From Polyangiaceae bacterium (GTDB lineage: Bacteria > Myxococcota_A > Polyangia > Polyangiales > Polyangiaceae): DNA of 11,907 bases. The notes below the pieces were generated by a model that had not been told where the DNA came from, did not search any database, and was given only the letters and a program-made list of their open reading frames with translations. Numbering within the stretch: the first letter of the stretch is position 1; every line of letters begins with the position of its first letter. Of the stretch, positions 1 to 11,907 are shown piece by piece. The position numbers and the translations under genes were made by a program. The stretch is taken from contig JAWKRE010000002.1 of assembly GCA_041389765.1 (NCBI GenBank), positions 1 through 11,907 of the forward strand. Direction: 5' to 3'.

Positions 1-994
1 GTGATAGCGAGTCCGCCTTCGCCCCGACATCCGCGCTCGCCGCCACGTCCACCAGGTCCGACTCTTTCAGCTCCACCGGCTCCGGCGGAGGCGCGGACAC
101 GCTCTGGATGCTCGACCACGAGGCCGCCGCGATGCTCGCCTCCGGCGCCGCGCCCTGCACGATCGCCACGAACGCGTCCGTCAGCTCCCGCACCGATTGA
201 AAGCGCTCCTCCCGGTTCTTCGCCAGCGCCCGCGCAAAGAAAGGATCCAGCGACTCGGGCAGCTCCTGCACGAACGTCCCCACCTTCGGCGGCGGCTCGA
301 CAAGCACCTTCGACAGCACCGTCCCGAACCCGTCGCCCGAAAATGGCAGGTGCCCTGTCAGCATCCGATAGGCGATCACCCCCACCGCCCACACGTCCGT
401 CCGGTGGTCCACGTCCTTGTCCCCCCGCGCCTGCTCCGGGCTCACGTAGTGCGGAGTCCCCACGATCTCCCCTGTCCGCGTCGACTCCCCCCGCAGCTCC
501 CCCGGCTGCTTCGCGATCCCGAAGTCAAGCACCTTCAGGATCTCGTAGTCGTCCACGCGCGCGAGAAACAGGTTCCCCGGCTTGATGTCGCGGTGCACGA
601 TCCCCGCCTCGTGCGCTCGCCGCAGCGCCTTCGCCACCTGCACGAGCAGGTCCGCCGTCTCGCTCACGGGCATGCGCCCCATGCGCCGGAGCCGCGTCCG
701 CAGGTCCTCCCCGCGCAAGAGCTCCATCACCAGATAAGGAGTCCCCTCCTCGACCCCGAAGTCCTGCACGTGCACGACGTGAGGGCTCTCGATCGCCGCC
801 GCCGCCCGCGCCTCCCGCTCGAACCGCACCACGAACGAGCGCGACCCCACGAACCGGGCGTCGAGGAACTTCACCGCGAGCTGGGACCCCAGCTTCACGT
901 GCCGCGCCACCCACACCGAGCCCATACCCCCGCGCGCAAGCTGGGCCTCCAGCCTGTACTTTTCCGCAATGACAGTTCCCGCCGCAATGCGCAT
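1..994 (-). CDS. Hanks-type Ser/Thr protein kinase, intact, 3' end (C-terminus) runs off window start
   Basis: Minus-strand translation from the ATG at 992-994 reads MRIAAGTVIAEKYRLEAQLARGGMGSVWVARHVKLGSQLAVKFL. This gives the Gly loop (GGMGSV), the VAIK-type Lys (LAVKF), [14 protein letters not shown] at rc ~575-616, DFGIAK and SPEQ. An in-frame TAG lies 5 codons upstream of the ATG. I translated 2..540 fully and found no stops and no frame change. The annotated antisense ORF 197..1021(+) is its shadow. Confidence 0.9.
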   Translation of the reverse strand, partial: MRIAAGTVIAEKYRLEAQLARGGMGSVWVARHVKLGSQLAVKFLDARFVGSRSFVVRFEREARAAAAIESPHVVHVQDFGVEEGTPYLVMELLRGEDLRTRLRRMGRMPVSETADLLVQVAKALRRAHEAGIVHRDIKPGNLFLARVDDYEILKVLDFGIAKQPGELRGESTRTGEIVGTPHYVSPEQARGDKDVDHRTDVWAVGVIAYRMLTGHLPFSGDGFGTVLSKVLVEPPPKVGTFVQELPESLDPFFARALAKNREERFQSVRELTDAFVAIVQGAAPEASIAAASWSSIQSVSAPPPEPVELKESDLVDVAASADVGAKADSLS

Positions 995-1235
995 TCGCCG
1001 TGGAGCCTAGCGCTGCAATGACGCACGGGAAGGCGCCCGCGAATCGAATTACGCATCTTCTGTGATCTGGCCGGAACATTTGACAGTTCCGCCCAGCAAA
1101 TGGTCTCATGCCCGCGCGGGAGCCGCGCCCTCACCCCCTCATTGTGCCGCCCCGCGTCACATTGCGAGCAGGTCGTCAACCGTCATTGCGCACTGTCATG
1201 GACATGAGTCCCCCCCGTTGCCGGTTCGCAATGAC
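965..1235. promoter_or_regulatory. Leader/promoter region of kinase 1 with repeated CGCAATGAC / GTCATTGCG motif and palindrome AATGCGCATT (986-995) overlapping the start codon
   Basis: Direct reading: CGCAATGAC at 965-973 and 1227-1235, tGCAATGACg at 1014-1023, reverse GTCATTGCG at 1182-1190, and half-sites at 983-991 and 1160-1166. A perfect 10-bp palindrome lies at 986-995. The 14-mer tgacagttcc(c)gcc occurs at 970-983 and 1081-1093. Confidence 0.3.
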
Positions 1236-1238
1236 GGG

Positions 1239-2048
1239 TCAGCGCGCCTTCGGGTCCACCCGGTCCACCTTCGCGCAGCGGCGCGAGTCCGTACACAGCG
1301 CACCATTCGGAATACGACAGCACACTCGCCCGCCCGAGCAGCTCGCGTCCGCCTTGCACCGGTTGGCGGCGCAGCATGCCAGTCCCTTCTTCCCCGCAGC
1401 GTCGAAGTCCTCCTGCGTGTAGCAGGGCGTGCAGGGCTTTTCGCCTCCTGGCAGCGACGCCGCCGCCGCCCGCACCTCCGCGTTCTCCCGCAGATCCAGG
1501 CTCTTCTGGAAATAGGCCCGCGCCCCCGACACGTTCCCCGCCCCCTTCTCGATGAGCCCCAGATTGTAATACACCGCCGCGAGCGGCATGGGGCTCTTGG
1601 GCTTCATCGCCAGCGCCCGGTCGCACTCGGCCTTTGCGTATCCCAGCTTGCCAGCCTGGATGTTCTTCCAGCACCGGTCGTTCCACTCCCACCCGCCGCG
1701 CTTGTCGATGAGCCCCACGTCCTCCGGAGGCAACACCGGCTTTCGCGCGTTGGTCCCGTCGTTGTCCGAGGCGGCTCCCACCGGCACGGGCACAGGATTG
1801 CCGTTCGCGGCTGTCGGCACGGGCGAGGGCACGGGCTCCTCCGCCACGATCCCCCCCGCCCCGCACTCGCACGGCAAGAACCCGCTCCCCTCGGCGTTGC
1901 ACGCCTGTGATCCCTGCGTCCCTCCCGGGCACGCACAGGCAGTCTGCTGCCCCGGCACACACTGCTGCGACCGGCAGGCGAAGACCCCCACCGAAACGAG
2001 AAATGCCGCGGCCACGAGCCCCACCCCCTTGCGCAAGATCGCCATCAT
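1239..2048 (-). CDS. Secreted/lipoprotein-like Cys-rich protein with one TPR-like motif (hypothetical), intact
   Basis: ORF track 1239..2198(-). The plausible start is the ATGATG at 2043-2048. It gives MMAILRKGVGLVAAAFLVSVGVFAC, a signal peptide with Cys following (lipobox-like). A Cys-rich segment follows (CVPGQQTACACPGGTQGSQACNAEGSGFLPCEC), then a Pro/Val linker. A TPR-like helix pair follows (KLGYAKAECDRALAMKPKSPMPLAAVYYNLGLIEKGAGNVSGARAYFQKSLDL), then a Cys-rich C-terminus. There are no frame breaks. Confidence 0.6.
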   Translation of the reverse strand: MMAILRKGVGLVAAAFLVSVGVFACRSQQCVPGQQTACACPGGTQGSQACNAEGSGFLPCECGAGGIVAEEPVPSPVPTAANGNPVPVPVGAASDNDGTNARKPVLPPEDVGLIDKRGGWEWNDRCWKNIQAGKLGYAKAECDRALAMKPKSPMPLAAVYYNLGLIEKGAGNVSGARAYFQKSLDLRENAEVRAAAASLPGGEKPCTPCYTQEDFDAAGKKGLACCAANRCKADASCSGGRVCCRIPNGALCTDSRRCAKVDRVDPKAR

Positions 2049-2361
2049 GCCTGTCACGCTACCACGACAGCGAACCCTCGCGATAGCCTGTCGCGGCGCC
2101 CACCATGCAGCGAATTGCCGCCACGCGCCCCCCAAGCACGTAGCGGAGGACCGTCCCGGTCCTGGAACAAGGCTTCCGGTGGCGCGGCACGCCGCCAAGC
2201 GGAAACGCGAAGAGCGTGGCGCATCAGGCTTGGATCCAAGGTGTTCTGTGGCGCTTTCCGCCAGACGAAAACGCGAGCTCGGCGAGACCGTCGGAACGCC
2301 CGCCCTGCGTGGAAGTCCCGCCAGACGCCCGCCCAGCAGGTAAATCCACAGACTGCTAGTT

Positions 2362-3463
2362 CTAGAATCTCCCCCCCACCGACAGGGCAGCTCCCTCCGG
2401 CGTGACGATGGGCGAGATGGCCAGTGTCCGCCTCACTGCCCCTGTCTTCTGCTCCTTGGGCCCGCTCACGAAGAACAGCACGAGCCCCGCCCCCGCCGCC
2501 GCGAGCCCCACCGGCAGCGCGATGGTCGAGACGAGCGCCTTCGTCCCCGCATCATTGATGACCGCCCGCCCCGCCGGACTGCACACCTTGCCGGGACACA
2601 GCGCCGGATCGCTCTCCGCGTTCCCCACGTCCGCCGCCGCGAGCCCCCCCAGCACGCCCCCCACCGCGGCCCCCGCAATGCCCACCCCCATGAGCACGTA
2701 CGAGGCTGTCCGCATCCCTGACCCCTCCTCGCCCCCGCCTGTCGCCGTTGCTGTCGGCGCGGCTGTGACCATGGCAGTCCCTGTCGGCGCAGCCGTGGTG
2801 TCCGGCGCGGTCGTGCCGCTCGCTGCGGCCGTGGCCGTGGCTGTCGGCGCAGGCTCGGGCGACTTCGTGAGAGGGGGAATCGCCGCCGTCTTCGAGTCCG
2901 CGTTGGGCCCCACGTTCACGGTGACTGTATACGCCTCATACCCCGGCGCCACCGCCTCGATCGTGTGATCGCCCGGGTCCACGAACAGGGGAGTCCCCAG
3001 CATGGCGGCCCCCATCTCCACCCCGTCGCTCTTCACCACGAGCCCCGGCACCGCCGCCGCCGTGATGGTCAGTCGCGACAGCTTCGGTTCGAGCTGCTTG
3101 GCCAGGTCGCGCGCCCCTGCTCGCGGTCCTGCCCGAGCTGCCCCGCGAGCACCGCCGCTTCCTTGTATTCCGTGAACGCCGACGCCGTCTTCCCGAGGCT
3201 CTCGTAGCACCGCGCCAGGTTGAGCTGAGTCCCCGGCGACGGATCGAGCTTCTGGCTCTCCGCGAACTTGGGGCAAGCCTCCGCGTACTTCTTCTCCCCC
3301 ATGAGCTTCTTGCCCGCCTGAAACAGCGACTCTGCCGCGACCTTCGCGCCTGCGCCGGGGCCGCGGGCGCGTGAAGCGCAGCGCTCACCGCGAGCGCGAC
3401 AGCCACGATGAGCCGCCGCCCGTGAAGCGCCCTTGTCGGTCTCGAACCGTCTCTAGCGATCAT
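2362..3463 (-). pseudogene. Signal-peptide TPR-like + PEGA-domain protein with two C-terminal TM segments; needs 2 frameshifts (about 3115 and about 3340) to read
   Basis: Three minus-strand ORF pieces join into one protein. Piece 2936..3463 gives the N-terminus MIARDGSRPTRALHGRRLIVAVALAVSAALHAPAAPAQA (signal peptide). Piece 3069..3302 gives GEKKYAEACPKFAESQKLDPSPGTQLNLARCYESLGKTASAFTEYKEAAVLAGQLGQDREQG (TPR-like). Piece 2362..3276 gives ARDLAKQLEPKLSRLTIT...VVKSDGVEMGAAMLGTPLFVDPGDHTIEAVAPGYEAYTVTVNV (PEGA-like), then a T/A/P linker and two hydrophobic helices. The junction at 3114-3117 is repaired by adding one C to a C4 run, which gives ...DREQGARDLAKQ. Confidence 0.7.
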
Positions 3464-5268
3464 CGAAGATGCTCTTTCCCTTGGTATCGGCGGGCTTTGC
3501 CGTCGAAGTAGCGGTCGCCTTGGCCCGCCCGCACTGCCGGTCGCGCCTCTCCCCGAGGTGGGATGGTTCCGCCGGCGACTGCCGCACTGGTACGTGGCCC
3601 CCGCCGCCGCGTCGTCGCTCGATGTCGACCCGCTCGCCGTCGCTGACGCCTCCGGAGCGGGAGTGTCCGTCGCCGCCGCAGCCGCGCTGGCAGTGGCGGT
3701 GACGCTGGCAGTGACACTGGCAGTCTCGCCGGAGGAGCCACGCTCGTCGCCGGAGAGCCCATCGCCTTCTCCGCCGCCGCCGTGGCCGGGCCGGAGCCGA
3801 CGCCGACCCGATCCCCACGAGCAGCGCCCCCGCGATCGCCCCGCCCGCGACGAGCACCGCCGCCGCGATCAGCAGCGGCGCCTTGCTCGAATTCGCCGGT
3901 GGAGGCGCCGGCGCCGCGATCACCATATCCGGCGCCGTCGACGGCCCGATCCCCGCCCCGCCCTTTCGGCCCCGAGCGCCCCCGGAGGCACGGTGTTGCC
4001 CGTCGCCGCCGCCTGCCCCGGAGCCCCTGTCGCGCCCGCGGCCGGCCCCGGCCCCGAGGCCCCGGTCACACCCCGGCCCCCGCCTGTCCCGGAGCCCCCA
4101 CCTGTCCCGGAAGCCCCGCCGCCGCCCCCAAAGGCGCATCGAGCGCGATGGTCCCCCCCGCCAGCGGAGCCCTCCCCGCCTGCCCCGCAGGCATCGCAGG
4201 CGCGTCGATCGCGACCGTGCCCCCGCGATCGGAGGCCGCGGATCCATCGCCAGCGTCCCCCCGCGTGCGCGCCGAGCCGGTGGGGATACGGGCTGTGGGG
4301 ACACCCCCGTGGGCGGCGTCAGCCCCGCAGCGCGGGCGATCCGATCGATGTTGGGCTGCGATCGTGCGGGCGCGAACGGCGCCAGCGCCACCGCAAACTC
4401 CGCGATGCTGCCATACCGCTCTGCCCTGTCGCGGGCGTACGCGCGCTCCAGCACCGGCGCGAGCGAGGGCGCAGATCCGGCTGCACGTTCGCGAGCGGCG
4501 TGGGAGTCCCCGTGAGCACCTCCGCGCAGAGCTGAGGCAGAGTGTCCGCATAGAAAGGCTGCTTGCCCGCGAGCAGCTCGTAGAGCGAGATCCCCAGAGC
4601 GTAGATGTCCGTGCGGTGATCGACCCCCGCGTCTGCTGCATCTGCTCCGGCGACATGTACAGCGCGGACCCCATCGCCGTCATCGTCTTGGTGAGGTTCT
4701 CGGTGGACTCTGCCATCTTCGAGATGCCGAAATCGAGCACCTTCACCAGCGCCGAGCCGTCGTGCCGCCGCGTGAGGAACAGATTGGCAGGCTTGATGTC
4801 GCGGTGAACGATCCCCGCGGCGTGCGCCTCCGTGAGGGCCTCCGCCGCCTGAAGCATTGTAGTCCACCGCGTCGTCCAGCTTCTGCACGCCGTTCTTCAT
4901 CAGCTCCCCCGCGAGGTCGTGCCCTGGAGGAACTCCATCACCATGTACGGAGCCTCGTTTTCGAGCGTCCCGACGTCGCTCACGCGCGCCACGTGCTCGC
5001 TCTTGATCTTCACCGCCGCCTTCCCTCGCGGAGAAAGCGCGCCACCGCCTCCGGGTGCTGCGAACGTGGATGTCAGGAACTTGAGGGCGACCCGATCATC
5101 GAGCACCATGTGCCGCGCCTCGACGACGACCCCATCCCCCCTGTCCGATCACGCGGTCGACTCGATACTTGCCCGCGAGGACGGTGCCCGGCGCGACAGG
5201 CGCGTCGTTGGCGACCGCCGGCCCTGCCGACTCCGGGGTTCCTGCGGGGTAGTGGTGGACTCCGTCAT
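3453..5268 (-). pseudogene. Receptor-type Hanks Ser/Thr protein kinase (catalytic domain + Pro/Gly linker + single TM + repetitive extracellular tail), at least 7 frameshifts
   Basis: The pieces on the minus strand are as follows. An ATG at 5266-5268 sits 5 nt after the upstream gene stop. GTVLAGKYRVDRVIGQGGMG lies in a second frame. Then comes VVVEARHMVLDDRVALKFL...APYMVMEFLQG (ORF 4900..5109), then [20 protein letters not shown] (4319..4900), then [28 protein letters not shown]...VLDFGISK...YMSPEQ (4066..4857). The kinase continues with [24 protein letters not shown] (4319..4900 again) and ...[19 protein letters not shown], followed by the TM helix KAPLLIAAAVLVAGGAIAGALLVGIGS (3453..4454). 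After that comes (VTAS)n low complexity. The shift at 5130-5133 is a missing C in a C4 run. The exact 3' end is ambiguous, between 3453 and 3470. Confidence 0.85.
3683..3725 (-). repeat. In-frame 12-nt tandem repeat (gctggcagtgac, about 3.5 copies; encodes VTAS repeats) in the post-TM tail of kinase 2
   Basis: Direct reading of ctggcagtggcggtgacgctggcagtgacactggcagt. Confidence 0.7.
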
Positions 5269-5274
5269 GACCGT

Positions 5275-7225
5275 TACCTGCCCAGCTTTCCGAGGATCAC
5301 ATCATTCGAGCCGACCGGCGTGACCGCCCCACCGCCGAAGTCCGCAGTCTGGCTGAACGAGCCCGCCAGCAGCGAATACCCGGCCCCGTCGACAGAGCCA
5401 GTCCACCGTGCCCCCAGCGCGTGAACCCACTGCACGTTGCCCGAGCTGTTCAGCTTGGCGACGAACGACCCCGCCTTGGGCGTCCCGGAGTCGGCAGCAT
5501 GGTGTTGCCCAGCATGAAGGGCTCATCGTACACCCCGGCGATCCACGGCCCGTCCGTCGTCGCCGTGACGCCGTGGAGCCTGTCGTTCCCGGCCCGCCGA
5601 ACTGCTTTTGCCACAGGACAGTCCCGCTCGAATTGTAGGCCACCACCACGATGTCCTGCGCGTCCGGCGTGAGCACCGTCCCGTTGAAGTTGCTCGGCGC
5701 GGTCAGCGTCCCTGCCACGATGGGCCCCGAGAGCCCCTGCGCCACCTTCGAACGAGAACCCACCCACGTCCGCCCCCTTCATCCACAAGGGCGCTCCGTT
5801 CAGGTCAATCTTGGCGAGGAAGAACGTCTGTCCCGCCGCGAGCGGCCCTGTCCCGATATCGAACCCCGGAGTGCTCGTCGTCCCCACCACGTACGCCGCG
5901 CCGCCCACGTAGTCTCCCCCAGGCTCCCTGACCCGAACATCCCCTCATCCCCTGACCCGCCCAGGTTGATCTTCCACTTGACCTGATTGGCCCCGTCGTA
6001 TTTCACGAGGAAGATGTCCGACCCCCCCACCTTCGCGATGGGGTGCGTGTTTCCCTGAGCCGACGAACACCGAGTCGCTGTCGAACTCGCCGGCCACGAG
6101 GTACCCGTCGAACACCCACTCTGTGCTCACACCTTCTGGTTGTTCCCGCCCCCGTACCCCAGGCTGAAGATGTGATTCCCGGACGTGTCATACCGCGCCA
6201 CGAACCCGTCGAACCCCTGTGAGATCCCCAGCGCGCCCCCGCCCGGGTCGAAGTTCCCGAACAGATAATACCCCGCCGCGAGCACCCCGTTGTTGTTGTG
6301 GAAGCTCACGTCGTTGATCGCCTCCGACGCGTCCCCGGAGAGCTGCTTGCTCCACCCGAACGACCCGCCGGGTTGTAGACAGCCAGGTACACATCCCCCC
6401 AGTCGTTCCCTGCGAATTCATGAACCTGCCGCCCATGTCGAGCGACCCCTTGAACCACCCGAGAATACGGCCTTGTTCGAGAACCCCGCGACGGCCACCC
6501 CGAGCTGTACTCGCTGCCGAACCCCCTTGGGAACGACCACACCGCAGTTGAACCCGTTGCAGTCCTCGTCCTCCGGCGCCCCGCAGAACTCGTCCGCCGG
6601 CACCACCTGCCCCAGGCACAGGTTGGGGTTCATGAGATCTGGCAGGATGCCAGTCGCCGGACACTGCAACGTCGACGACTTGCACTGTCCCACACCGGCA
6701 GTCCCCGCGGGCCCCAAAACACGTGAGCGCCGTGTCGGTGTGCAACACCCGTTCTCCGCCAGCGAGAACCCGTCGCAGTCGTCATCCTCCGGCGTCGTGC
6801 AATCCTCGAAGTTGCCGGGCAGCGTCTGCCCCTTGCAGGCGTCGAAGCCCGTCCCCTCCAGGTTGCACTTCTGCTGCCCCTTCTTGCAGACCCCCACGCC
6901 CTCCGTCCCGTTCGGCCCCTCGTAGCAATCCACCGACTCGCCCGGCGTGCAGATCATGCCCCGCCGGTGCCCCCGGTGCCGCCGGTGCCGCCGCCGCCTT
7001 GCGCTGTCCCGCCGGTGCCGCCGCCGCCTTGCGAGGTGCCCCCGGTGCCGCCGCCGCCCTGCGACGTCCCCCGGTGCCGCCCTGCGTCGTGCCGCCGGTG
7101 TTGCCGCCGGAGCCCCCGTCGGCCGCGTCCGTGAAGTCGTCGATGCCGAGGATCAGCCCGCACCCGGTGGAGGCCAGGGTGAGCGGAAACGTCGCGGCGA
7201 TGAAGCGAAGGGTGTACGTTGCATG
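5275..7225 (-). pseudogene. Lipoprotein with Gly/Thr-rich linker, Cys-rich E-x-C-x3-E-D-D-D-C-D/N-G repeats (MopE/'putative metal-binding motif'-like) and SBBP beta-propeller repeats; at least 6 frameshifts
   Basis: The ATG at 7223-7225 plus one C-run repair gives MQRTPLRFIAATFPLTLASTGC, a lipoprotein signal. The linker is GGSGGNTGGTTQGGTGG(TSQGGGGTGG)x3. The Cys-rich block is at 6418..6957(-): CTPGESVDCYEG...EDCTTPEDDDCDG...EFCGAPEDEDCNG. SBBP-like repeats are spread over three frames: FDGFVARYDTSGNHIFSLGYGGG, SDIFLVKYDGANQVKWKINLGGSGDEG, FLAKIDLNGAPLWMKG, VVVAYNSSGTVLWQKQFGGPG and FVAKLNSSGNVQWVHALG. The protein ends ...SNDVILGKLGR with TAA at 5275-5277. The shifts at 7068-7072, 6959-6962 and 7210-7212 are all minus-one events in homopolymers. 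Confidence 0.8.
6958..7100 (-). repeat. In-frame about 30-nt tandem repeat (gccggtgccgccgccgccttgcg.ggt.cc, 4-5 copies) encoding the GGTGGTSQGG linker; one copy carries a frameshift
   Basis: Direct reading of 6958-7100 shows near-identical 30-mers. The last copy lacks 6 nt and has a C5 run where the others imply C6. Confidence 0.7.
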
Positions 7226-7394
7226 GGGATCCTCGGCGCGGAGGACGCGCCCCGCCCGATGATCGCCGAACGTGCAGCGCCATCGCAAGCCTCTCGGCGC
7301 CGCCGCCGGCCTTCTTCTCCCGGCGGTCCCCCTCCGAGGCCCTCTTCTGCGATTTACGTGACCCGAGCGCGCCGAACCCTCTACCCTTGCCGCG

Positions 7395-9021
7395 ATGGAA
7401 GAAGGCGCGGATCCCAGGCAGGAAGGCACCGGCACCGAGTCCGTCTACGCTCCCCCAAGGCATGACGGCCCGCTCGACGATCTCGTGTCCCGCGCGATGG
7501 AGCCTCGGCACCGAGCCGACCGTCCGGCAGCAGAACGGCATCTACGAGGTCGTCGGCGAGATCGTCTCCCGTACAACAACCACGATCTCGCCCCCGCCCG
7601 CATCCGCGATCGCAAGTGGGCGATGCAGGACATCGCCGCGTCTCTGGATCAGCATGTCCGCCTGTGTCCCCACGTACATGCTCGCCTCCTCGCTCATCTC
7701 CGAGGGCATGAGCTGGTGGCAGGCCGTGCTCACCATCTTCCTCGGCAACTGCGTCGTCCTCTTGCCGATGGTCGCCAACGCCCACGCCGGCACCAAATAC
7801 GGCATCCCGTTCCCGTCTACTGCCGCCCTTCGTTCGAATCCTCGGCGCCAACGTCCCCGCGCTTCTCCGCGCCCTCGTCGCGTGCGGCTGGTTCGGAATC
7901 CAGGCCTGGATTGGCGGCTGGGCCATCTACAAGATCCTCACTGTCTACTTCCCCGCCTGGGAGAAGCTCCCGAAGTCCTACGGAGGGATCAACGGCGCCG
8001 GGCTCGTCTGCTTCCTCTTCTTCTGGGGCATCAACATGTTCGTGATCTACCGAGGAATCGAGTCGATCCGCATCCTCCTCAACATCAAGGCCCTCTCCTC
8101 ATCGCCCTTGGCCTGGCGCTCCTCACGTGGGCTTACGTCAAGGCCGGCGGCTTTGGCCCCATGCTCACGAAGCCCTCTGCCTTCGAGCCCGGCCAGCCCA
8201 AAGCCGGCCAGTTCTGGACCTTCTTCTTCCCCGCCCTGACAGGCATGGTCGGCTTCTGGGCCACCCTCTCCCTCAACATCCCTGACTTCACCAGATACGC
8301 CTTCTCCCAGAAGGACCAGGCCGCCGGCCAGGCCCTCGGACTCCCCACCACCATGGGCCTATTCTCCTTCATCGGAGTCGCCGTCACCAGCGCCACATTG
8401 GTCATCTACGGAGAGACCGTCTGGGACCCCGTTGTCCTGATCCCAAGTTCAAGCACCCGGCGATTCTGGTCTTCGCCCCCGCCGCCCTCTGCATTGCCAC
8501 GCTGGCCACCAACATCGCCGCCAACGTCGCAGCCCTGCCAACGACTTCGCCAATCTCTGGCCCTCCAAGATCTCCTTCCGCCGCGGCGGCTACATCACCG
8601 GTGTCATCGGCATTGCCATCCTCCCTGGCGCCTCGTCGCCGACCCCACCGGCTACATCTTCACCTGGCTCGTCGGCTACTCCGCCTCCTCGGCTCGATCG
8701 GCGGAATCCTCATCTGCGACTACTTCGGATCCGCCGCGCCAAGCTCGATCTCGTGAAGCTCACAGGAAGGATGGCCCTTACTGGTACACGGGTGGCTGGA
8801 ACTACAGGGCCTCTCGTCGCCTTGATGGCCGGCATCCTCCCCAATCTCCCCGGCTTCCTCGGCACGATCAAGGTCGCCAAGGTCGCCCCTCTATGGATGA
8901 CCCTCTACAACTACGCGCCTGGTTCGTAGGCTTCGGCCTCCTTCCTTGGTTCTACACCGTCCTCCTGGGGAGACCGCGCCCCTGCCGACTCTCCCCTGCC
9001 GGGCAGACCACCCCCGCCTGA
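7395..9021 (+). pseudogene. NCS1 family nucleobase:cation symporter (PucI/allantoin-permease-like); at least 6 frameshifts
   Basis: The following plus-strand pieces lie across three frames: RLPYNNHDLAPARIRDRKWAMQDIAASL; then WISMSACVPTYMLASSLISEGMSWWQAVLTIFLGNCVVLLPMVANAHAGTKYGIPFP; then [40 protein letters not shown]...MFVIYRGIESIRILLNIKA; then PLLIALGLALLTWAYVKAGGFGP...WATLSLNIPDFTRYAFSQKDQAAGQALGLPTTMGLFSFIGVAVTSATLVIYGETVWDPV; and finally ...LYNYAWFVGFGLLPWFYTVLLG. This matches NCS1 hallmarks (NGHAGTKYG.PFPV, ILNIPDFTR, LY..SWFVG) as I recall them. The N-terminal start is ATG 7395 or ATG 7497. One shift at about 7648 is a tc-dinucleotide indel. Confidence 0.85.
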
Positions 9022-9027
9022 CCTGCC

Positions 9028-9118
9028 GACTCCCGCCTTCGACTCCCGCCTTCGACTCCCGCCTTCGACTCCCGCCTTCGACTCCCGCTGTTGACCCCCG
9101 CCTTCGACTCGCCCCGAA
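9028..9118. repeat. 13-bp tandem repeat gactcccgccttc: 4 perfect copies (9028-9079) plus 3 degenerate copies, intergenic between convergent genes
   Basis: Direct reading shows perfect copies at 9028, 9041, 9054 and 9067. The copies at 9080, 9093 and 9106 carry 3, 1 and several mismatches. The unit length is not a multiple of 3. Confidence 0.9.
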
Positions 9119-9130
9119 CAGGACCGACGC

Positions 9131-10019
9131 TCAGCCTTCGTTGCGGACGCCCTTCTCGCGCGCTGACTGCACGAGGAAGAGCGCCAGCATGTACACATTG
9201 GCGACCGTCAGCCGGAACAGCACATATTCCGCCAGGTACCCTGTGCATGCGCAGACGCCGAGCAGGAGCCCGTGAGTGGAAGGCCTGAGAAACGCCCACC
9301 CCCGCGCCACCGGAGCCAGCGCCCGCCCGTACCGAGACGCCTGCTCCCGGTTGCTGCCGCTCTCCTTCTTCTTCCGCCCCAGCGCCGACTGCACCTGAAG
9401 AAACAGCGCATAGATCCGATAAAAGATCAGGTGAAAGAACGAGGCTCCTCGCCTTCGAGCGCGCGATATCGGCCCGTGTCTCTTCGAGATCATCCCCTCC
9501 GGTAGCTCGACCCTGAGAGCGTCAGATACCGATTCTTGAAATGATCAAACAGCGTCCCTTGCAGAAGGATGCTCAAGAGCCCCCCCACCGCCAGCAGCGC
9601 CCCTTGTCCCCGTGAGTCTCGTGCAGGTGAAGCGCCAGCGTGACCCCTGTCGCCACCCCCACGATGTAATCGCTCATCCCATCCAGGATGCGCCCGAGCC
9701 GCGACGACGTGCCCGGCGCGCGTGCGAGCTGCCCGTCCGCACAATCGAGGATCCCGTAGAGCAGCGTGAGCCCCGACGCGATGTAGATCGAGCGTGCGTC
9801 CGTGAACCGAAAGAGGACCGCCCCCGCCAGCCCGCTCGCAATGCTGAGGACGGTCATGCCGTTCGCGCTCAGCGGTGTGGGGAGCGCCAGCCGCACGAAG
9901 AGATAGGCAGTCGGCCGAAAGAAGTAGAGATCGAACGGAGTCTCGACCTGCCCCGGCTTCAGCGTGGCCCGGAATGACGCGATCTTCGGTTTCGCAGCGT
10001 GGCTATCGGCGGTCACCAT
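9131..10019 (-). pseudogene. CDP-alcohol phosphatidyltransferase family membrane protein; 2 frameshifts (about 9600 and about 9495)
   Basis: The minus-strand piece 9573..10211 contains MVTADSHAAKPKIASFRATLKPGQVETPFDLYFFRPTAYLFVRLALPTPLSANGMTVLSIASGLAGAVLFRF...LLYGILDCADGQLARAPGTSSRLGRILDGMSDYIVGV. This is the D-G-x2-A-R-x8-G-x3-D-x3-D signature. The protein continues in 9490..9744 (ALLAVGGLLSILLQGTLFDHFKNRY) and 9131..9493 (...TGYLAEYVLFRLTVANVYMLALFLVQS...), ending at the stop at 9131. The start is taken as the ATG at 10017-10019. The ORF is open upstream to 10211, so the N-terminus could be longer. Confidence 0.8.
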
Positions 10020-10274
10020 GGACAGGCATCCAGAGGGCTCAGCGGTGCGCCGAGCAGGCCCCACAAAGCGCACACCCCGAGCGCGCCTCTGCCCCGCGAG
10101 GTCCGCCTCGGTCATCCAAGCGTGCGTGCTGGAGAACACCGTCATCACATCATCGACCGACGGAGGCGGCGTATCTTCCAGCGGAGTCCCCGGAAGCGGC
10201 CGGAACACCACCGGCAGCGGGATCGCCCTGTATCCAGCACTGCCCGCACCGCAGACAGCGTATCTTCCAGCGGC

Positions 10275-11129
10275 TCAAGCCCGATGATGATCTGACTTCG
10301 ACACCTGGTTCTCCCCGAGGATCTTCACCGCGTACGCGAGGGCTTGGAGGTAGCGATCCCGCGAGATGGCCGCCTTCCCGGCATCATCTGCCTTCGAACG
10401 TCCTCGTCCCAGATTTCGAGGTTGAGGAGGATGGAATCGAGCCCCGCATCCTTGAGCCGATCGACAGTCGTCCGTATCGGGCGGCGCCATCTCGACGCAG
10501 ACAGGGATGCTCGCGTGCTTCTTCAATTCCGCGATGGCATCGGCCTGTGCCGAGCGCTCTTGTCCGTGAGCCACGTCCCCCGCCGAACGAGATCTCCGCC
10601 GCCGGATTCTCCTCCAGCGCCACCTTCACCACCTCGATGATGGGCTCGATCGCTCGCCACCGCGCCTTCTGGTCGATCTTCATCGCACAGAACTTGCACA
10701 TCTGATCCCCTGCCAGTAATCGCACCCCTGATAAATCGCTGTATACAGCGAAGTGTCACAGTGCGCCGACACCACCATGGACATGGGCGTCCCATCCTGA
10801 GTGGCCCGCGAATACCAGCGAGGCCACGCAAACGGCGTCGCGGTGACAAGCCGCTCCTCCCCTTCGTAGACGACGTAAGTCCCGTCTTCTTTTGCGAGGT
10901 GGAGCGGAGATCGCCGCGCAAACGGTTCGAGGACGGGCGCATTGACGGCAGTGTGCGACTCCCCGTCATGGAGCCGAAAAAACCGCCCTTGCGACAGGCC
11001 CGCCCGCTTGTGCCGATAGTGATTCTCGTCCGTGAGCTCCGCCCATAGCTCGTCCGGCACAAAGAGCCCTTGCGCAAAGATCTTCGCCTTCGCGAGCATC
11101 AGCCTCTCGGTGATGGGCCGGCGTGCCAT
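10275..11129 (-). pseudogene. Radical-SAM-like Fe-S enzyme with about 150-aa N-terminal extension (function unknown); at least 4 frameshifts
   Basis: The N-terminal piece 10680..11294(-) reads MARRPITERLMLAKAKIFAQGLFVPDELWAEL...MSMVVSAHCDTSLYTAIYQGCDYWQG. It runs into 10384..10725(-), DQMCKFCAMKIDQKARWRAIEPIIEVVKVALEENPAAEISFGGG, which has a Cys cluster and a GGE/GGD glycine motif. Then comes ...AIAELKKHASIPVCVE (10275..10574 frame), then TVDRLKDAGLDSILLNLEIWDEDVRRQMMPG (third frame), then KAAISRDRYLQALAYAVKILGENQVSKSDHHRA and the stop at 10275. The pattern (cluster, GGEP-like motif, ...LkdaGld.i.lslE...) fits the radical SAM fold. The family assignment is uncertain. An alternative start is at 11294. 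Confidence 0.5.
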
Positions 11130-11408
11130 GTCCGGCGCCGAGGGGACGGAAGCACCAGCACCCCCGGTGGTCGCCGGCCCCGCCCTGTCCGGACCGAGGG
11201 TCAGAGCAGGATCCAGGACACCGGCCGAGCCGCCCGCCGGAGCAGAACCTTGCCGATCGCCCGCCTGAACGAGAGGAAGTACACGCACCTGCAAGAGCGT
11301 AGGAGCAAACGCACTCCGTCGTCAAACCCCCCCGCGCCTTCCTGTGTGGATCGACCCACTGAACCTGTTAGTCTCGGTGTGCTCCAGCAATCGCCAGGTT
11401 CAACAGTC

Positions 11409-11648
11409 ATGACGGAGAGCGAGCTTCTCGACCGCTTTGGGGTGTCTCCCGCCGAGGCCGATCTCGACGAGATTCGGTCCCTTCTCCACGAGCACGCCGC
11501 CAGGGAACGGGACAGTCAAGGAGAGGGCGACACAGAGGTCATGAAGCTCTGTTGTGTGCAGCTATTCTCTGTCGGATTGCTGGAGGAGGCGGTACTATGG
11601 CGTGGGCGCCCAAGGAACGCCGTAGGCGCCCGCCTTTACCCCGCGTGA
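11409..11648 (+). CDS. Small hypothetical protein (79 aa) in a lower-GC patch
   Basis: ATG at 11409, from ORF track 11070..11648, gives MTESELLDRFGVSPAEADLDEIRSLLHEHAARERDSQGEGDTEVMKLCCVQLFSVGLLEEAVLWRGRPRNAVGARLYPA. The composition is less Ala/Arg/Pro-biased than the GC-frame artefacts around it. Local GC is visibly lower, and codons such as TTG, TGT and TTC are used. Only a weak SD is present. Confidence 0.35.
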   Translation: MTESELLDRFGVSPAEADLDEIRSLLHEHAARERDSQGEGDTEVMKLCCVQLFSVGLLEEAVLWRGRPRNAVGARLYPA

Positions 11649-11797
11649 GGGTGGCAGAGGACACGCCCCGTCGTCAGCTCCGCCACGAGCCACCGACGCA
11701 CGGTGCTTGCCGGCGGCTCGTCTCCCCTCCCGCGCCCCTCCCGCCCCAAGCGCCATCCTGCGCACAGCCCCCATTCCGGCTTGCCAGCGCCCCGTGA
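11597..11797 (+). CDS. Possible overlapping small ORF (66 aa, Arg/Pro-rich) with strong SD GGAGGAGG 7 nt upstream; may be spurious
   Basis: GGAGGAGG at 11582-11589, then ATG at 11597, gives MAWAPKERRRRPPLPRVRVAEDTPRRQ.... It overlaps the previous ORF by 52 nt in another frame. The product is compositionally like GC-driven junk. Confidence 0.2.
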   Translation: MAWAPKERRRRPPLPRVRVAEDTPRRQLRHEPPTHGACRRLVSPPAPLPPQAPSCAQPPFRLASAP

Positions 11798-11816
11798 TTT
11801 GTGAAAGCCTCCCCTC

Positions 11817-11907
11817 ATGGCCTCTTCGCCCCCACCGGGCGAGCCCGCCCATCTCCCGTCCCCCAACCTCGCGGCCCCCGTCGCCAGCCTCCCCACCCCC
11901 CCGGTCG
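11817..11907 (+). CDS. Possible 5' end of a gene running off the window (MASSPPPGEPAHLPSPNLAAPVASLPTPPV...)
   Basis: ATG at 11817 is followed by an open frame to the window end. It is not in the ORF track because no stop is present. The N-terminus is Pro-rich. This is very tentative. Confidence 0.15.
   Translation, partial: MASSPPPGEPAHLPSPNLAAPVASLPTPPV

Follow-up and report, generated by a model that had tools for sequence, protein, structure and literature searches.

A conserved gene cassette for a putative receptor Ser/Thr kinase, a TPR/PEGA membrane protein and a beta-propeller lipoprotein in Polyangiaceae

Introduction

Myxobacteria encode hundreds of Hanks-type kinases, and, to our knowledge, hardly any of them has a known input. 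PknD of Mycobacterium tuberculosis is a bitopic Ser/Thr kinase fused to an extracytoplasmic beta-propeller of the NHL type. In the "three-component" arrangements RcsF with IgaA and RcsCDB, and NlpE with CpxA, a lipoprotein and an inner-membrane accessory protein feed a membrane histidine kinase. In Myxococcus xanthus, the multi-kinase-associated TPR proteins MkapA and MkapB reportedly bind Ser/Thr kinases; they are said to be cytoplasmic, to lack a PEGA sandwich and a membrane hairpin, and to be encoded by genes that do not overlap a kinase gene. The locus described here combines a Cys-rich lipoprotein gene, a receptor-type kinase gene and a gene for a TPR/PEGA membrane protein. It lies in a window of 11,907 nucleotides from a Polyangiaceae bacterium (contig JAWKRE010000002.1), and "the window" below refers to this whole stretch. 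A literature search on PEGA together with kinase or myxobacteria found no such cassette.

Results

Layout and junctions of the module

Reading of the window sequence places all three module genes on the minus strand. The features of the window are:

1..994, minus strand: kinase 1, codons 1-331 of 464, intact, the gene continuing beyond the window
1239..2048, minus strand: gene for a Cys-rich secreted TPR protein, 269 aa, intact, identical to deposited MEZ4293498.1
2362..3463, minus strand: TPR/PEGA membrane-protein gene
3453..3463, minus strand: 11-nt overlap ATGATCGCTAG, with the kinase stop and the TPR/PEGA start
3453..5268, minus strand: receptor-type Hanks Ser/Thr kinase gene
5269..5273, minus strand: 5-nt spacer from the lipoprotein stop to the kinase ATG
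5274..7224, minus strand: lipoprotein gene (signal peptide, lipobox LASTGC, Gly/Thr-rich linker, Cys-rich MopE-like modules, SBBP-type beta-propeller)
7225..7394, no strand: divergent intergenic region of 170 nt between the lipoprotein and NCS1 permease genes
7395..9021, plus strand: cytosine/purine (NCS1) permease gene, divergently transcribed, frameshifted in the window
3100..11907, no strand: low-quality stretch with frame switches in every gene

The lipoprotein stop codon (TAA, 5276-5274) is followed by the spacer letters cggtc (positions 5273-5269) and the kinase ATG (5268-5266). Direct reading thus bears out the 5-nt gap and the kinase start at 5266-5268 of the original prediction; the TAA named there is also right, but its position, 5275-5277, is one base off. 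At the second junction, the kinase ends in ...FDDR* (TAG 3455-3453) within gatgatcgctag, and the same letters hold the ATG of the TPR/PEGA gene (3463-3461); the predicted overlap of the kinase 3' end with an ATG at 3461-3463 is therefore real and measures 11 nt. The lipoprotein gene opens with an ATG at 7224-7222, and its signal peptide is followed by a lipobox of the form [LVI][ASTVI][GAS]C (FIAATFPLTLASTGCG, at about 7205-7160). The same signal peptide and lipobox are found in the orthologues P0002, L003 and L005.

The intergenic region 7225..7394 probably serves as the module's promoter region. A consensus scan found no sigma-70-like sequence in it; over the module, the promoter and terminator consensus scan detected no promoter, and the terminator-like sites it returned were weak and intragenic. 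The NCS1 permease gene is kept as the upstream neighbour of the module in L002, L005, L008 and L009.

On the other side of the module, the Cys-rich TPR gene was confirmed as the intact open reading frame that had been predicted. It lies 313 nt beyond the TPR/PEGA stop, and it does not immediately precede kinase 1 as had been proposed, since its stop at 1239 and the kinase 1 ATG at 994 are separated by a 244-nt gap. The proposed parallel between two kinases, each preceded by a secreted Cys-rich or repeat protein, was also abandoned, as two Cys-rich TPR homologues are not adjacent to kinases. Neither these two homologue loci nor the gaps gave evidence that the gene at 1239..2048 belongs to the module. 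The real parallel lies beyond the window: in the near-identical contig L001, a gap of 1 nt separates kinase 1 from a downstream TPR/PEGA paralogue, and a Cys-rich lipoprotein comes next. This second kinase and TPR/PEGA paralogue pair adjoins the module in L001.

Frameshifts in the window copy

All three module genes lack a continuous open reading frame in the window; the list of open reading frames holds only fragments of them. Six-frame translation of the module genes requires repeated frame changes, and a GC3 frame plot shows many frame switches from about 3100 to 11907. The original prediction had treated the genes as readable and passed silently over the frameshifts that all three carry. 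Indels were scored against L001, a metagenome-assembled genome (MAG) contig in which the genes are intact. Positions 3118-7168 differ from it by 68 indels and 139 mismatches, positions 1-3000 by one mismatch and no indel. Frameshifting indels number 25 in the lipoprotein gene, 35 in the kinase gene and 4 in the TPR/PEGA gene. The last four all fall inside 3118-3425, leaving the 3' 229 codons intact, and the deposited TPR/PEGA protein is a fragment of 229 aa. The lipoprotein ATG at 7224 and the signal peptide of the gene lie in different frames.

As judged from the pattern of differences, these frameshifts most likely arose as errors of long-read assembly, in an allele that is slightly diverged. 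One-base deletions are enriched in runs of at least four (16 of 38, against a background of 11%) and concentrate in C/G homopolymers, and 82 of the 136 substitutions in the two genes counted fall at third codon positions. Real decay, with the window copy being a non-functional duplicate or allele of the module (a pseudogene array), would fit the frameshifting of every gene between about 3100 and 11907 next to a clean 1-3000, a further frameshifted TPR/PEGA copy (P0121) on a second contig of the same MAG, and the truncated product in the deposited annotation. Such decay is nevertheless very improbable. One indel for every two substitutions is far above natural decay, the homopolymer preference of the deletions also speaks against it, and the third-position bias means that purifying selection has acted on this allele. 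Unrelated neighbours are equally hit, the permease gene being as heavily frameshifted as the module genes, and the boundary near 3100 is abrupt, as expected from uneven polishing. Because the frameshifts are most likely assembly errors, the organism itself probably carries intact module genes. As a practical warning, the window and its public MAG contain dense indel errors, and gene calls in them are truncated or missing.

Domain composition of the three proteins

Searches of the window fragments with Pfam and NCBIfam gave matches for the stitched kinase and weak ones for the TPR/PEGA protein, and none for the lipoprotein. Because the fragments matched so poorly, domain analysis was moved to intact orthologues.

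The 613-aa kinase orthologue in L001 has a kinase domain, a juxtamembrane region of low complexity and one transmembrane helix. The Pkinase profile PF00069 scores 143.7 bits on it and 134.6 bits on the frame-stitched window translation (cut-off 31.7). All catalytic motifs are present in L001 (GQGGMG 41, VALK 60, HRDIKPAN 156, DFG 180 and SPE 207), while in the window they are spread over different reading frames. The protein is thus predicted to be an active Hanks-type enzyme with a cytoplasmic catalytic domain, in line with the receptor Ser/Thr kinase originally called. The extracellular tail assigned to it is also present, although as a sensor domain it does not stand: about 120 aa past the transmembrane helix form an Ala/Thr/Pro-rich, low-complexity stalk with no folded ectodomain, ending in KSIFDDR. 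The terminal motif (hydrophobic-x-D/E-x-R, ...D-x-R) occurs in 39 of 56 kinases paired with a TPR/PEGA gene, down to 30% catalytic-domain identity; it is not exclusive to them, being found in 8 of 21 other kinases. The motif overlaps the start region of the downstream gene, and it could be constrained at the nucleotide level by that start.

The intact TPR/PEGA orthologue has 368 aa. A signal peptide and a domain of three TPR-like repeats with a conserved Cys pair are followed by a PEGA-like beta-sandwich, a Pro/Thr linker and two hydrophobic helices with a CxxxxC[S/T] loop between them, and the protein ends in a C-terminal beta-hairpin whose last residue is Phe. In the alignment, Ser or Thr follows the second conserved loop Cys in most family members. 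The conserved Cys pair in the hairpin loop could be cytoplasmic or periplasmic. The TPR_2 profile scores 26.8 bits against a cut-off of 27, and PEGA (PF08308) stays below its cut-off on the orthologue (17.5 versus 20.8 bits) and reaches 20.3 bits on the paralogue g367. In an AlphaFold2 model, six helices span residues 26-117, the TPR-like domain and the beta-sandwich have a pLDDT of 96-98, and the hydrophobic helices form a hairpin. The modelled TPR part aligns to the TPR protein 3ma5 with a target TM-score of 0.86, and weak Foldseek matches (E about 1e-2) liken it to small TPR domains, including binders of C-terminal peptides. The fold of the beta-sandwich resembles that of transthyretin-like/CarboxypepD_reg domains, and "PEGA-like" is the safe wording for it. 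The combination of TPR-like domain, beta-sandwich and two hydrophobic helices agrees with the predicted TPR/PEGA membrane protein. At 50% identity, the family has some 15,000 cluster representatives (E <= 1e-30); the homologue profile was built from 10 closer sequences.

For the lipoprotein, neither L001 nor the window fragments gave a Pfam match to SBBP (PF06739), a profile carried by more distant homologues, and the NCBIfam LipL53 SBBP lipoprotein model scores 51 bits against a cut-off of 400. In the AlphaFold2 model of the orthologue P0002, residues 219-644 are all-beta with a pLDDT above 90. In the Protein Data Bank this propeller is matched best by that of CylK (E 3e-20), ahead of BamB, PQQ and WD40 propellers. 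The assignment as a Cys-rich beta-propeller lipoprotein therefore stands on the intact orthologue, with CylK as the closest propeller.

Conservation of the neighbourhood

A comparison of gene order across related genomes, proposed together with the original prediction, gave a positive answer. The order lipoprotein, kinase, TPR/PEGA recurs in six loci (L001, L002, L003, L005, L008 and L009), with lipoprotein-kinase gaps of 4-12 nt and a kinase-TPR/PEGA overlap of 11 nt in all six. The sequence GCATCTTCGATGATCGCT is identical at the four junctions printed in full (L001, L002, L008 and L009), and gene-call coordinates give the same 11-nt overlap for L003 and L005. The five loci besides L001 have different downstream flanks, and their lipoproteins share 40-51% identity with the window's orthologue. 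With a common strand, this close spacing and conservation across species in six loci, the three genes are probably co-transcribed and translationally coupled, a prediction from spacing and conservation only.

Of a wider set of 73 genome loci that contain a TPR/PEGA homologue, 56 have a kinase on the same strand directly upstream of it, against about 4.5% expected from the kinase density in the same 73 loci; the remaining 17 have no such kinase. The stop and start codons of the two genes often overlap by 4 or 11 nt. L020, from Sorangium sp. So ce1000, carries such a pair. Similarity to the reference pair co-varies between kinase and partner (Spearman 0.61, and 0.49 without the orthologues). The upstream lipoprotein occurs only with the closest orthologues, whose kinase domains are at least 81% identical, and is absent at 64-73%. 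From these gene neighbourhoods, the kinase and TPR/PEGA pair is taken as the older conserved core and the lipoprotein as a clade-specific addition.

Two further candidates were rejected. An upstream Cys-rich lipoprotein is not general to all kinase and TPR/PEGA pairs: most pairs have no co-directional gene upstream, and outside the orthologous clade there are at most a few clear cases: the Cys-rich upstream gene of L026 has a lipobox, and those of L033 and L062 are only Cys-rich. An open kinase frame runs through the partner gene in L011 and L012, but this apparent fusion is a frame artefact, because the linker is Arg/Pro-rich and out of frame, the partner retains a Met and a signal peptide of its own, and a normal kinase tail (...EDYR* and ...WDQR*) is read in another frame. 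No true kinase-TPR/PEGA fusion was found.

Discussion

The data lead us to consider it somewhat probable that the three genes form a conserved signalling unit, in which a receptor kinase has its folded ectodomains supplied in trans. The kinase would place its catalytic domain in the cytoplasm and, across a single transmembrane helix, expose only the low-complexity stalk with its C-terminal motif. Its main partner in trans would be the downstream TPR/PEGA protein, an ancient and widespread partner of this kinase clade, and the upstream propeller lipoprotein would be an extra subunit in this lineage, probably ligand-binding. Kinase and partners may form a complex at the inner membrane and in the periplasm, in which the C-terminal peptide of the kinase may dock on the TPR groove. 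Ligands or envelope changes sensed by the propeller or by the TPR/PEGA domains could then alter kinase oligomerisation or activity. That the lipoprotein is tied to the kinase in one narrow clade only counts against this explanation. A broader and more tentative idea, which may well prove wrong, is that TPR/PEGA proteins are obligate trans ectodomain subunits of one clade of "ectodomain-less" Ser/Thr receptor kinases in Polyangiia, recruited by the D-x-R peptide in the TPR groove, with lineage-specific Cys-rich lipoproteins, here the SBBP-type propeller, as interchangeable ligand-binding modules.

The same pairing could also mean that the kinase has a target or effector, not a sensor, in the TPR/PEGA protein and perhaps in the lipoprotein. 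Phosphorylation of the loop Ser/Thr after the conserved CxxxxC would then control an envelope process, with surface layer, polysaccharide and adhesion as candidates. The conservation of this residue, the modelled position of the loop at the tip of the helical hairpin, and the likeness of the beta-sandwich to domains often found in envelope proteins all favour such a role, and tight pairing suits a kinase and its substrate as well as a receptor complex. However, the conserved loop Cys pair suggests a disulfide and hence a periplasmic loop, no output domain is recognisable in either partner, and the conserved motif at the extracytoplasmic C terminus of the kinase would be left unexplained. A role as target or effector is thus conceivable but rather unlikely.

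We give hardly any credence to the idea that the genes are neighbours without shared function, their tight spacing reflecting compact operons in a kinase-rich genome. Polyangiaceae do encode many kinases and secreted Cys-rich and TPR proteins, the fetched loci contain roughly one other kinase match per 39 kb, and the Cys-rich TPR gene and kinase 1 are not a conserved pair. Yet the excess of kinases directly upstream of TPR/PEGA genes argues strongly against chance, the 11-nt dual-coding overlap is conserved, and the triad is kept while the genes flanking it downstream change.

A partner that is conserved over a large clade, overlaps the kinase gene and comes from a family of thousands offers a testable handle on the signal input of a whole class of kinases. 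If the broader idea of obligate trans ectodomain subunits is true, bacterial Hanks kinases would gain a receptor architecture that has not been described for them, modular and built from several subunits.

Comparison with known systems

The best NCBIfam similarity of the catalytic domain is to the PASTA kinases PknB/StkP (267 bits, cut-off 450), with which the kinase shares the layout of kinase domain, juxtamembrane region and single transmembrane helix; instead of PASTA repeats it carries the low-complexity tail and its terminal motif. The modelled three-repeat TPR matches the TPR clamps of Hop/Sti1, CHIP, SGT and Tah1 at the domain level (weak Foldseek matches, E about 1e-2), and the conserved acidic/Arg C-terminal motif of the kinase may extend the parallel; those clamps belong to cytosolic eukaryotic co-chaperones. 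The likeness to RcsF with IgaA and RcsCDB and to NlpE with CpxA is one of architecture, with no homology detected. PknD of M. tuberculosis resembles the module as a bitopic Ser/Thr kinase combined with an extracytoplasmic beta-propeller, and the NCBIfam PknD model matches the module kinase domain below its cut-off. Whereas the propeller of PknD is fused to the kinase, that of the module is a separate, upstream-encoded lipoprotein of the SBBP/CylK type next to a kinase without a folded ectodomain.

Layout and sequence quality of the module

The window has a GC content of 64-78%, and the genes of the module are all encoded on the minus strand, next to a divergent permease:

7395-9021, plus: NCS1 cytosine/purine permease, divergent from the module
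7224-7222, minus: lipoprotein ATG, with the lipobox ...TLASTGCG downstream of it
5276-5274, minus: lipoprotein stop TAA
between 5274 and 5268, minus: 5-nt spacer cggtc, lipoprotein stop to kinase ATG
5268-5266, minus: kinase ATG
3463-3461, minus: TPR/PEGA ATG, within gatgatcgctag
3455-3453, minus: kinase stop TAG after the protein end ...FDDR, within gatgatcgctag

Both junctions named in the original prediction are present, namely the 5-nt spacer and the end of the kinase gene running over the TPR/PEGA ATG, an overlap of 11 nt inside gatgatcgctag. The lipoprotein stop, which had been placed at 5275-5277, lies at 5276-5274.

In the window none of the three genes forms an open reading frame; the ORF list contained fragments only, and a six-frame translation scattered the kinase motifs across three frames. 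A GC3 frame plot was steady over 1-2050 but, beginning at about 3100, jumped between frames many times up to the window end, with frame switches also in the divergent permease and the remaining sequence to 11907. A stitched lipoprotein query retrieved a protein almost identical to it, encoded by contig L001 (JAWKRI010000075.1) of a Polyangiaceae MAG. L001 begins within the lipoprotein gene and carries, intact and in this order, the kinase (613 aa), the TPR/PEGA protein (368 aa), a Cys-rich TPR protein (269 aa) and a separate kinase, kinase 1 (464 aa). The alignment with L001 spans window positions 1-7168. One mismatch and no indels were found over 1-3000, versus 139 mismatches and 68 indels over 3118-7168; frameshifting indels numbered 25 in the lipoprotein gene, 35 in the kinase gene and 4 in the TPR/PEGA gene, and none in the genes for the Cys-rich TPR protein and kinase 1. 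Sequence quality shifts abruptly near 3100, from clean (1-3000) to indel-dense and frame-switching (3100-11907).

Of 38 one-base deletions, 16 fell in runs of at least four identical bases (background 11%). The kinase and lipoprotein genes carry 136 substitutions, 82 of them at third codon positions, and there was one indel for every two substitutions. Because of these three features, the pattern points to sequencing error and not to decay. We read the window copy as a slightly diverged allele under purifying selection, obscured by error-prone reads and uneven polishing, and not as a decayed locus. As a result of the indels and frame switches over 3100-11907, gene calls are truncated or missing here in the public MAG to which the window belongs (locus tags R3B70_). 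The TPR/PEGA gene is deposited there as a 229-aa fragment (MEZ4293499.1), and the Cys-rich TPR protein is MEZ4293498.1. Further frameshifted coding sequence at 9146-11126 on the minus strand is syntenic with 773-2739 of locus L008.

Conservation of the three-gene order

The gene order named in the original prediction is conserved within one clade: a lipoprotein, a kinase and a protein of about 350 aa, the TPR/PEGA partner, follow each other in L002, L003 and L005, and also in L008 and L009, both from the genome scan. Across these loci, identity is 40-51% for the lipoprotein (to the window's orthologue), 81-85% for the kinase domain and 62-70% for the partner. The lipoprotein stop precedes the kinase ATG by 4-12 nt in six loci including L001, and kinase and partner overlap by the same 11 nt; GCATCTTCGATGATCGCT is identical at all four fully printed junctions (L001, L002, L008 and L009). 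As in the window, the divergent permease lies upstream in L002, L005, L008 and L009. Since this neighbor is shared and the genes downstream vary between loci, the unit starts at the divergent intergenic region 7225-7394 and ends past the TPR/PEGA gene.

The kinase and TPR/PEGA pair as core

A scan of species-representative genomes with a TPR/PEGA-family profile yielded 80 loci, in MAGs and genomes of Polyangiaceae, Sorangium, Byssovorax, Labilithrix and Nannocystineae. Upstream sequence sufficed for this comparison in 73 loci; in 56 of them a same-strand kinase domain lies directly upstream of the TPR/PEGA gene, where the density of kinases in the rest of these loci would predict 4.5%. Kinase stop and partner start often overlap by 4 or 11 nt, or are a few tens of nt apart. 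How closely a kinase resembles that of the reference pair co-varies with the resemblance of its partner (Spearman 0.61; 0.49 without orthologues), to which shared phylogeny contributes. The lipoprotein adjoins only the closest kinases and is missing upstream of those at 64-73% identity. Outside the clade most pairs are without a co-directional upstream gene, and another large Cys-rich upstream protein occurs in a few clear cases at most: L026, whose 732-aa protein has a lipobox, and L033 and L062, where it is Cys-rich only. Because the pairing is widespread and the lipoprotein confined to the closest kinases, kinase and TPR/PEGA protein form the old unit, with the SBBP-type lipoprotein a lineage-specific first gene.

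In L061, L076, L087 and L028, the kinase near the TPR/PEGA homologue either follows it directly or is divergent from it on the other strand, and it too ends in a D-x-R-type tail (DDLFDNRR, DPFAKRH, DPFKSRK and GWEDER). In two independent MAGs (L011 5050-5560, L012 3050-3560), the kinase outer tail is out of frame with the TM helix and catalytic domain, and the open frame of the kinase extends into the partner gene, resembling a fusion. This probably reflects indel errors in the low-complexity linker.

In L001, a second, paralogous unit occupies 6226-9959, of which only kinase 1 (window 1-994) lies inside the window edge. There, only 1 nt separates kinase 1 from a downstream TPR/PEGA paralogue (367 aa, ending in SVTGSF), and a further 1-nt gap lies between the paralogue and the next gene, for a Cys-rich lipoprotein that has both a myxo_disulf repeat and a proprotein-convertase P-domain. 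The parallel originally drawn for the Cys-rich TPR gene (1239-2048, minus strand), as a partner preceding kinase 1, is weaker, because the gap is 244 nt, the family is small and two homologues have no kinase neighbor. One homologue, P0245 in L090, heads a run of about 12 small co-directional ORFs ending near a phage-integrase gene, a context that looks mobile or prophage-like, unlike that of the window's gene.

Properties of the three proteins

The kinase matches Pkinase with 143.7 bits and has complete catalytic motifs from the G-loop through SPE. A single TM helix (475-493) is followed by a tail of some 120 residues, with a high content of Ala, Thr, Ser and Pro, that ends in KSIFDDR; this tail forms the outer part, and the protein has no folded ectodomain. 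Paired kinases keep a short motif at the extreme C terminus (SIFDDR, VLDDR, VFGDR, DLYGDRK, NPLEDRQ, DPLSDQR). The last residue is Arg in 33 of 56, and [DE]x0-2Rx0-1 is terminal in 39 of 56, even at only 30% catalytic-domain identity. The motif is enriched in paired kinases and not exclusive to them, because 8 of 21 other kinases of the same loci match too, some adjoining a TPR/PEGA gene in another orientation.

The TPR/PEGA protein scores just below the Pfam cut-offs (TPR_2 26.8 vs 27; PEGA 17.5 vs 20.8), and no Pfam or NCBIfam family spans its full length. The family is very large, with 14,995 cluster representatives hit by the profile at E <= 1e-30. The AF2 model of the orthologue P0122 (mean pLDDT 82) comprises a signal helix, six helices (26-117, pLDDT 96-98), a beta-sandwich (121-186), a disordered linker, a pair of long helices with the hydrophobic segments, and a C-terminal beta-hairpin whose last residue, Phe, is almost invariant; in the alignment, the C terminus is almost always G-x-F. 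Two Cys pairs are conserved, one in the TPR part (ACPKF...C[YH]E) and one between the hydrophobic helices, where CxxxxC is followed by Ser/Thr (LCPxKxC[S/T]P; loop at window ~2560-2600). This second pair may be a disulfide, belong to a metal site or adjoin a phospho-site. Foldseek gave domain-level matches only, the sandwich resembling transthyretin-like/CarboxypepD_reg domains and the helical part small TPR domains, some of which bind C-terminal peptides.

The lipoprotein has no Pfam match, and in NCBIfam it resembles the LipL53 SBBP lipoprotein family only weakly; PF06739 and PF11617 occur in homologues that are more distant. In the AF2 model of its orthologue P0002, 83 disordered N-terminal residues and Cys-rich hairpin modules accompany a beta-propeller (219-644, pLDDT above 90); among solved structures, the propeller of CylK is the nearest (E 3e-20). 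Unrelated Polyangiaceae lipoproteins share C-x-x-[IL]-[LV]-G-[ILMV]-[DN/E]-[DE] straight after the lipobox Cys (CGLILGIDDF, CNLLVGLDDV, CSSILGLNDY, CEVILGMDGH, CNLLVGVEEL), with sites at window ~7170-7140, L001 8727-9959, L012 505-1863, L026 4336-6534 and L041 3384-4460. This short motif may direct sorting or anchoring.

Discussion

The module is a conserved, tightly spaced unit of an active-looking kinase without an ectodomain and two partners, secreted or in the membrane, whose extracytoplasmic domains are folded, and a conserved peptide marks the outer end of the kinase. Most likely, the partners do the sensing in a receptor kinase of several subunits, in which the terminal motif of the kinase could plausibly dock in the TPR groove and the propeller lipoprotein would be a lineage-specific ligand-binding add-on. 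The main rival explanation takes the TPR/PEGA partner for a substrate or effector of the kinase, phosphorylated on the loop Ser/Thr, and is compatible with the sensing reading. The weight of the finding is reduced by the error-ridden window copy and by a mechanism that we infer. A description of a kinase and PEGA cassette was not found in the literature searched. The parts (Hanks kinase, TPR domain, beta-sandwich, beta-propeller) are ordinary, and sensing through accessory proteins is known for histidine kinases.
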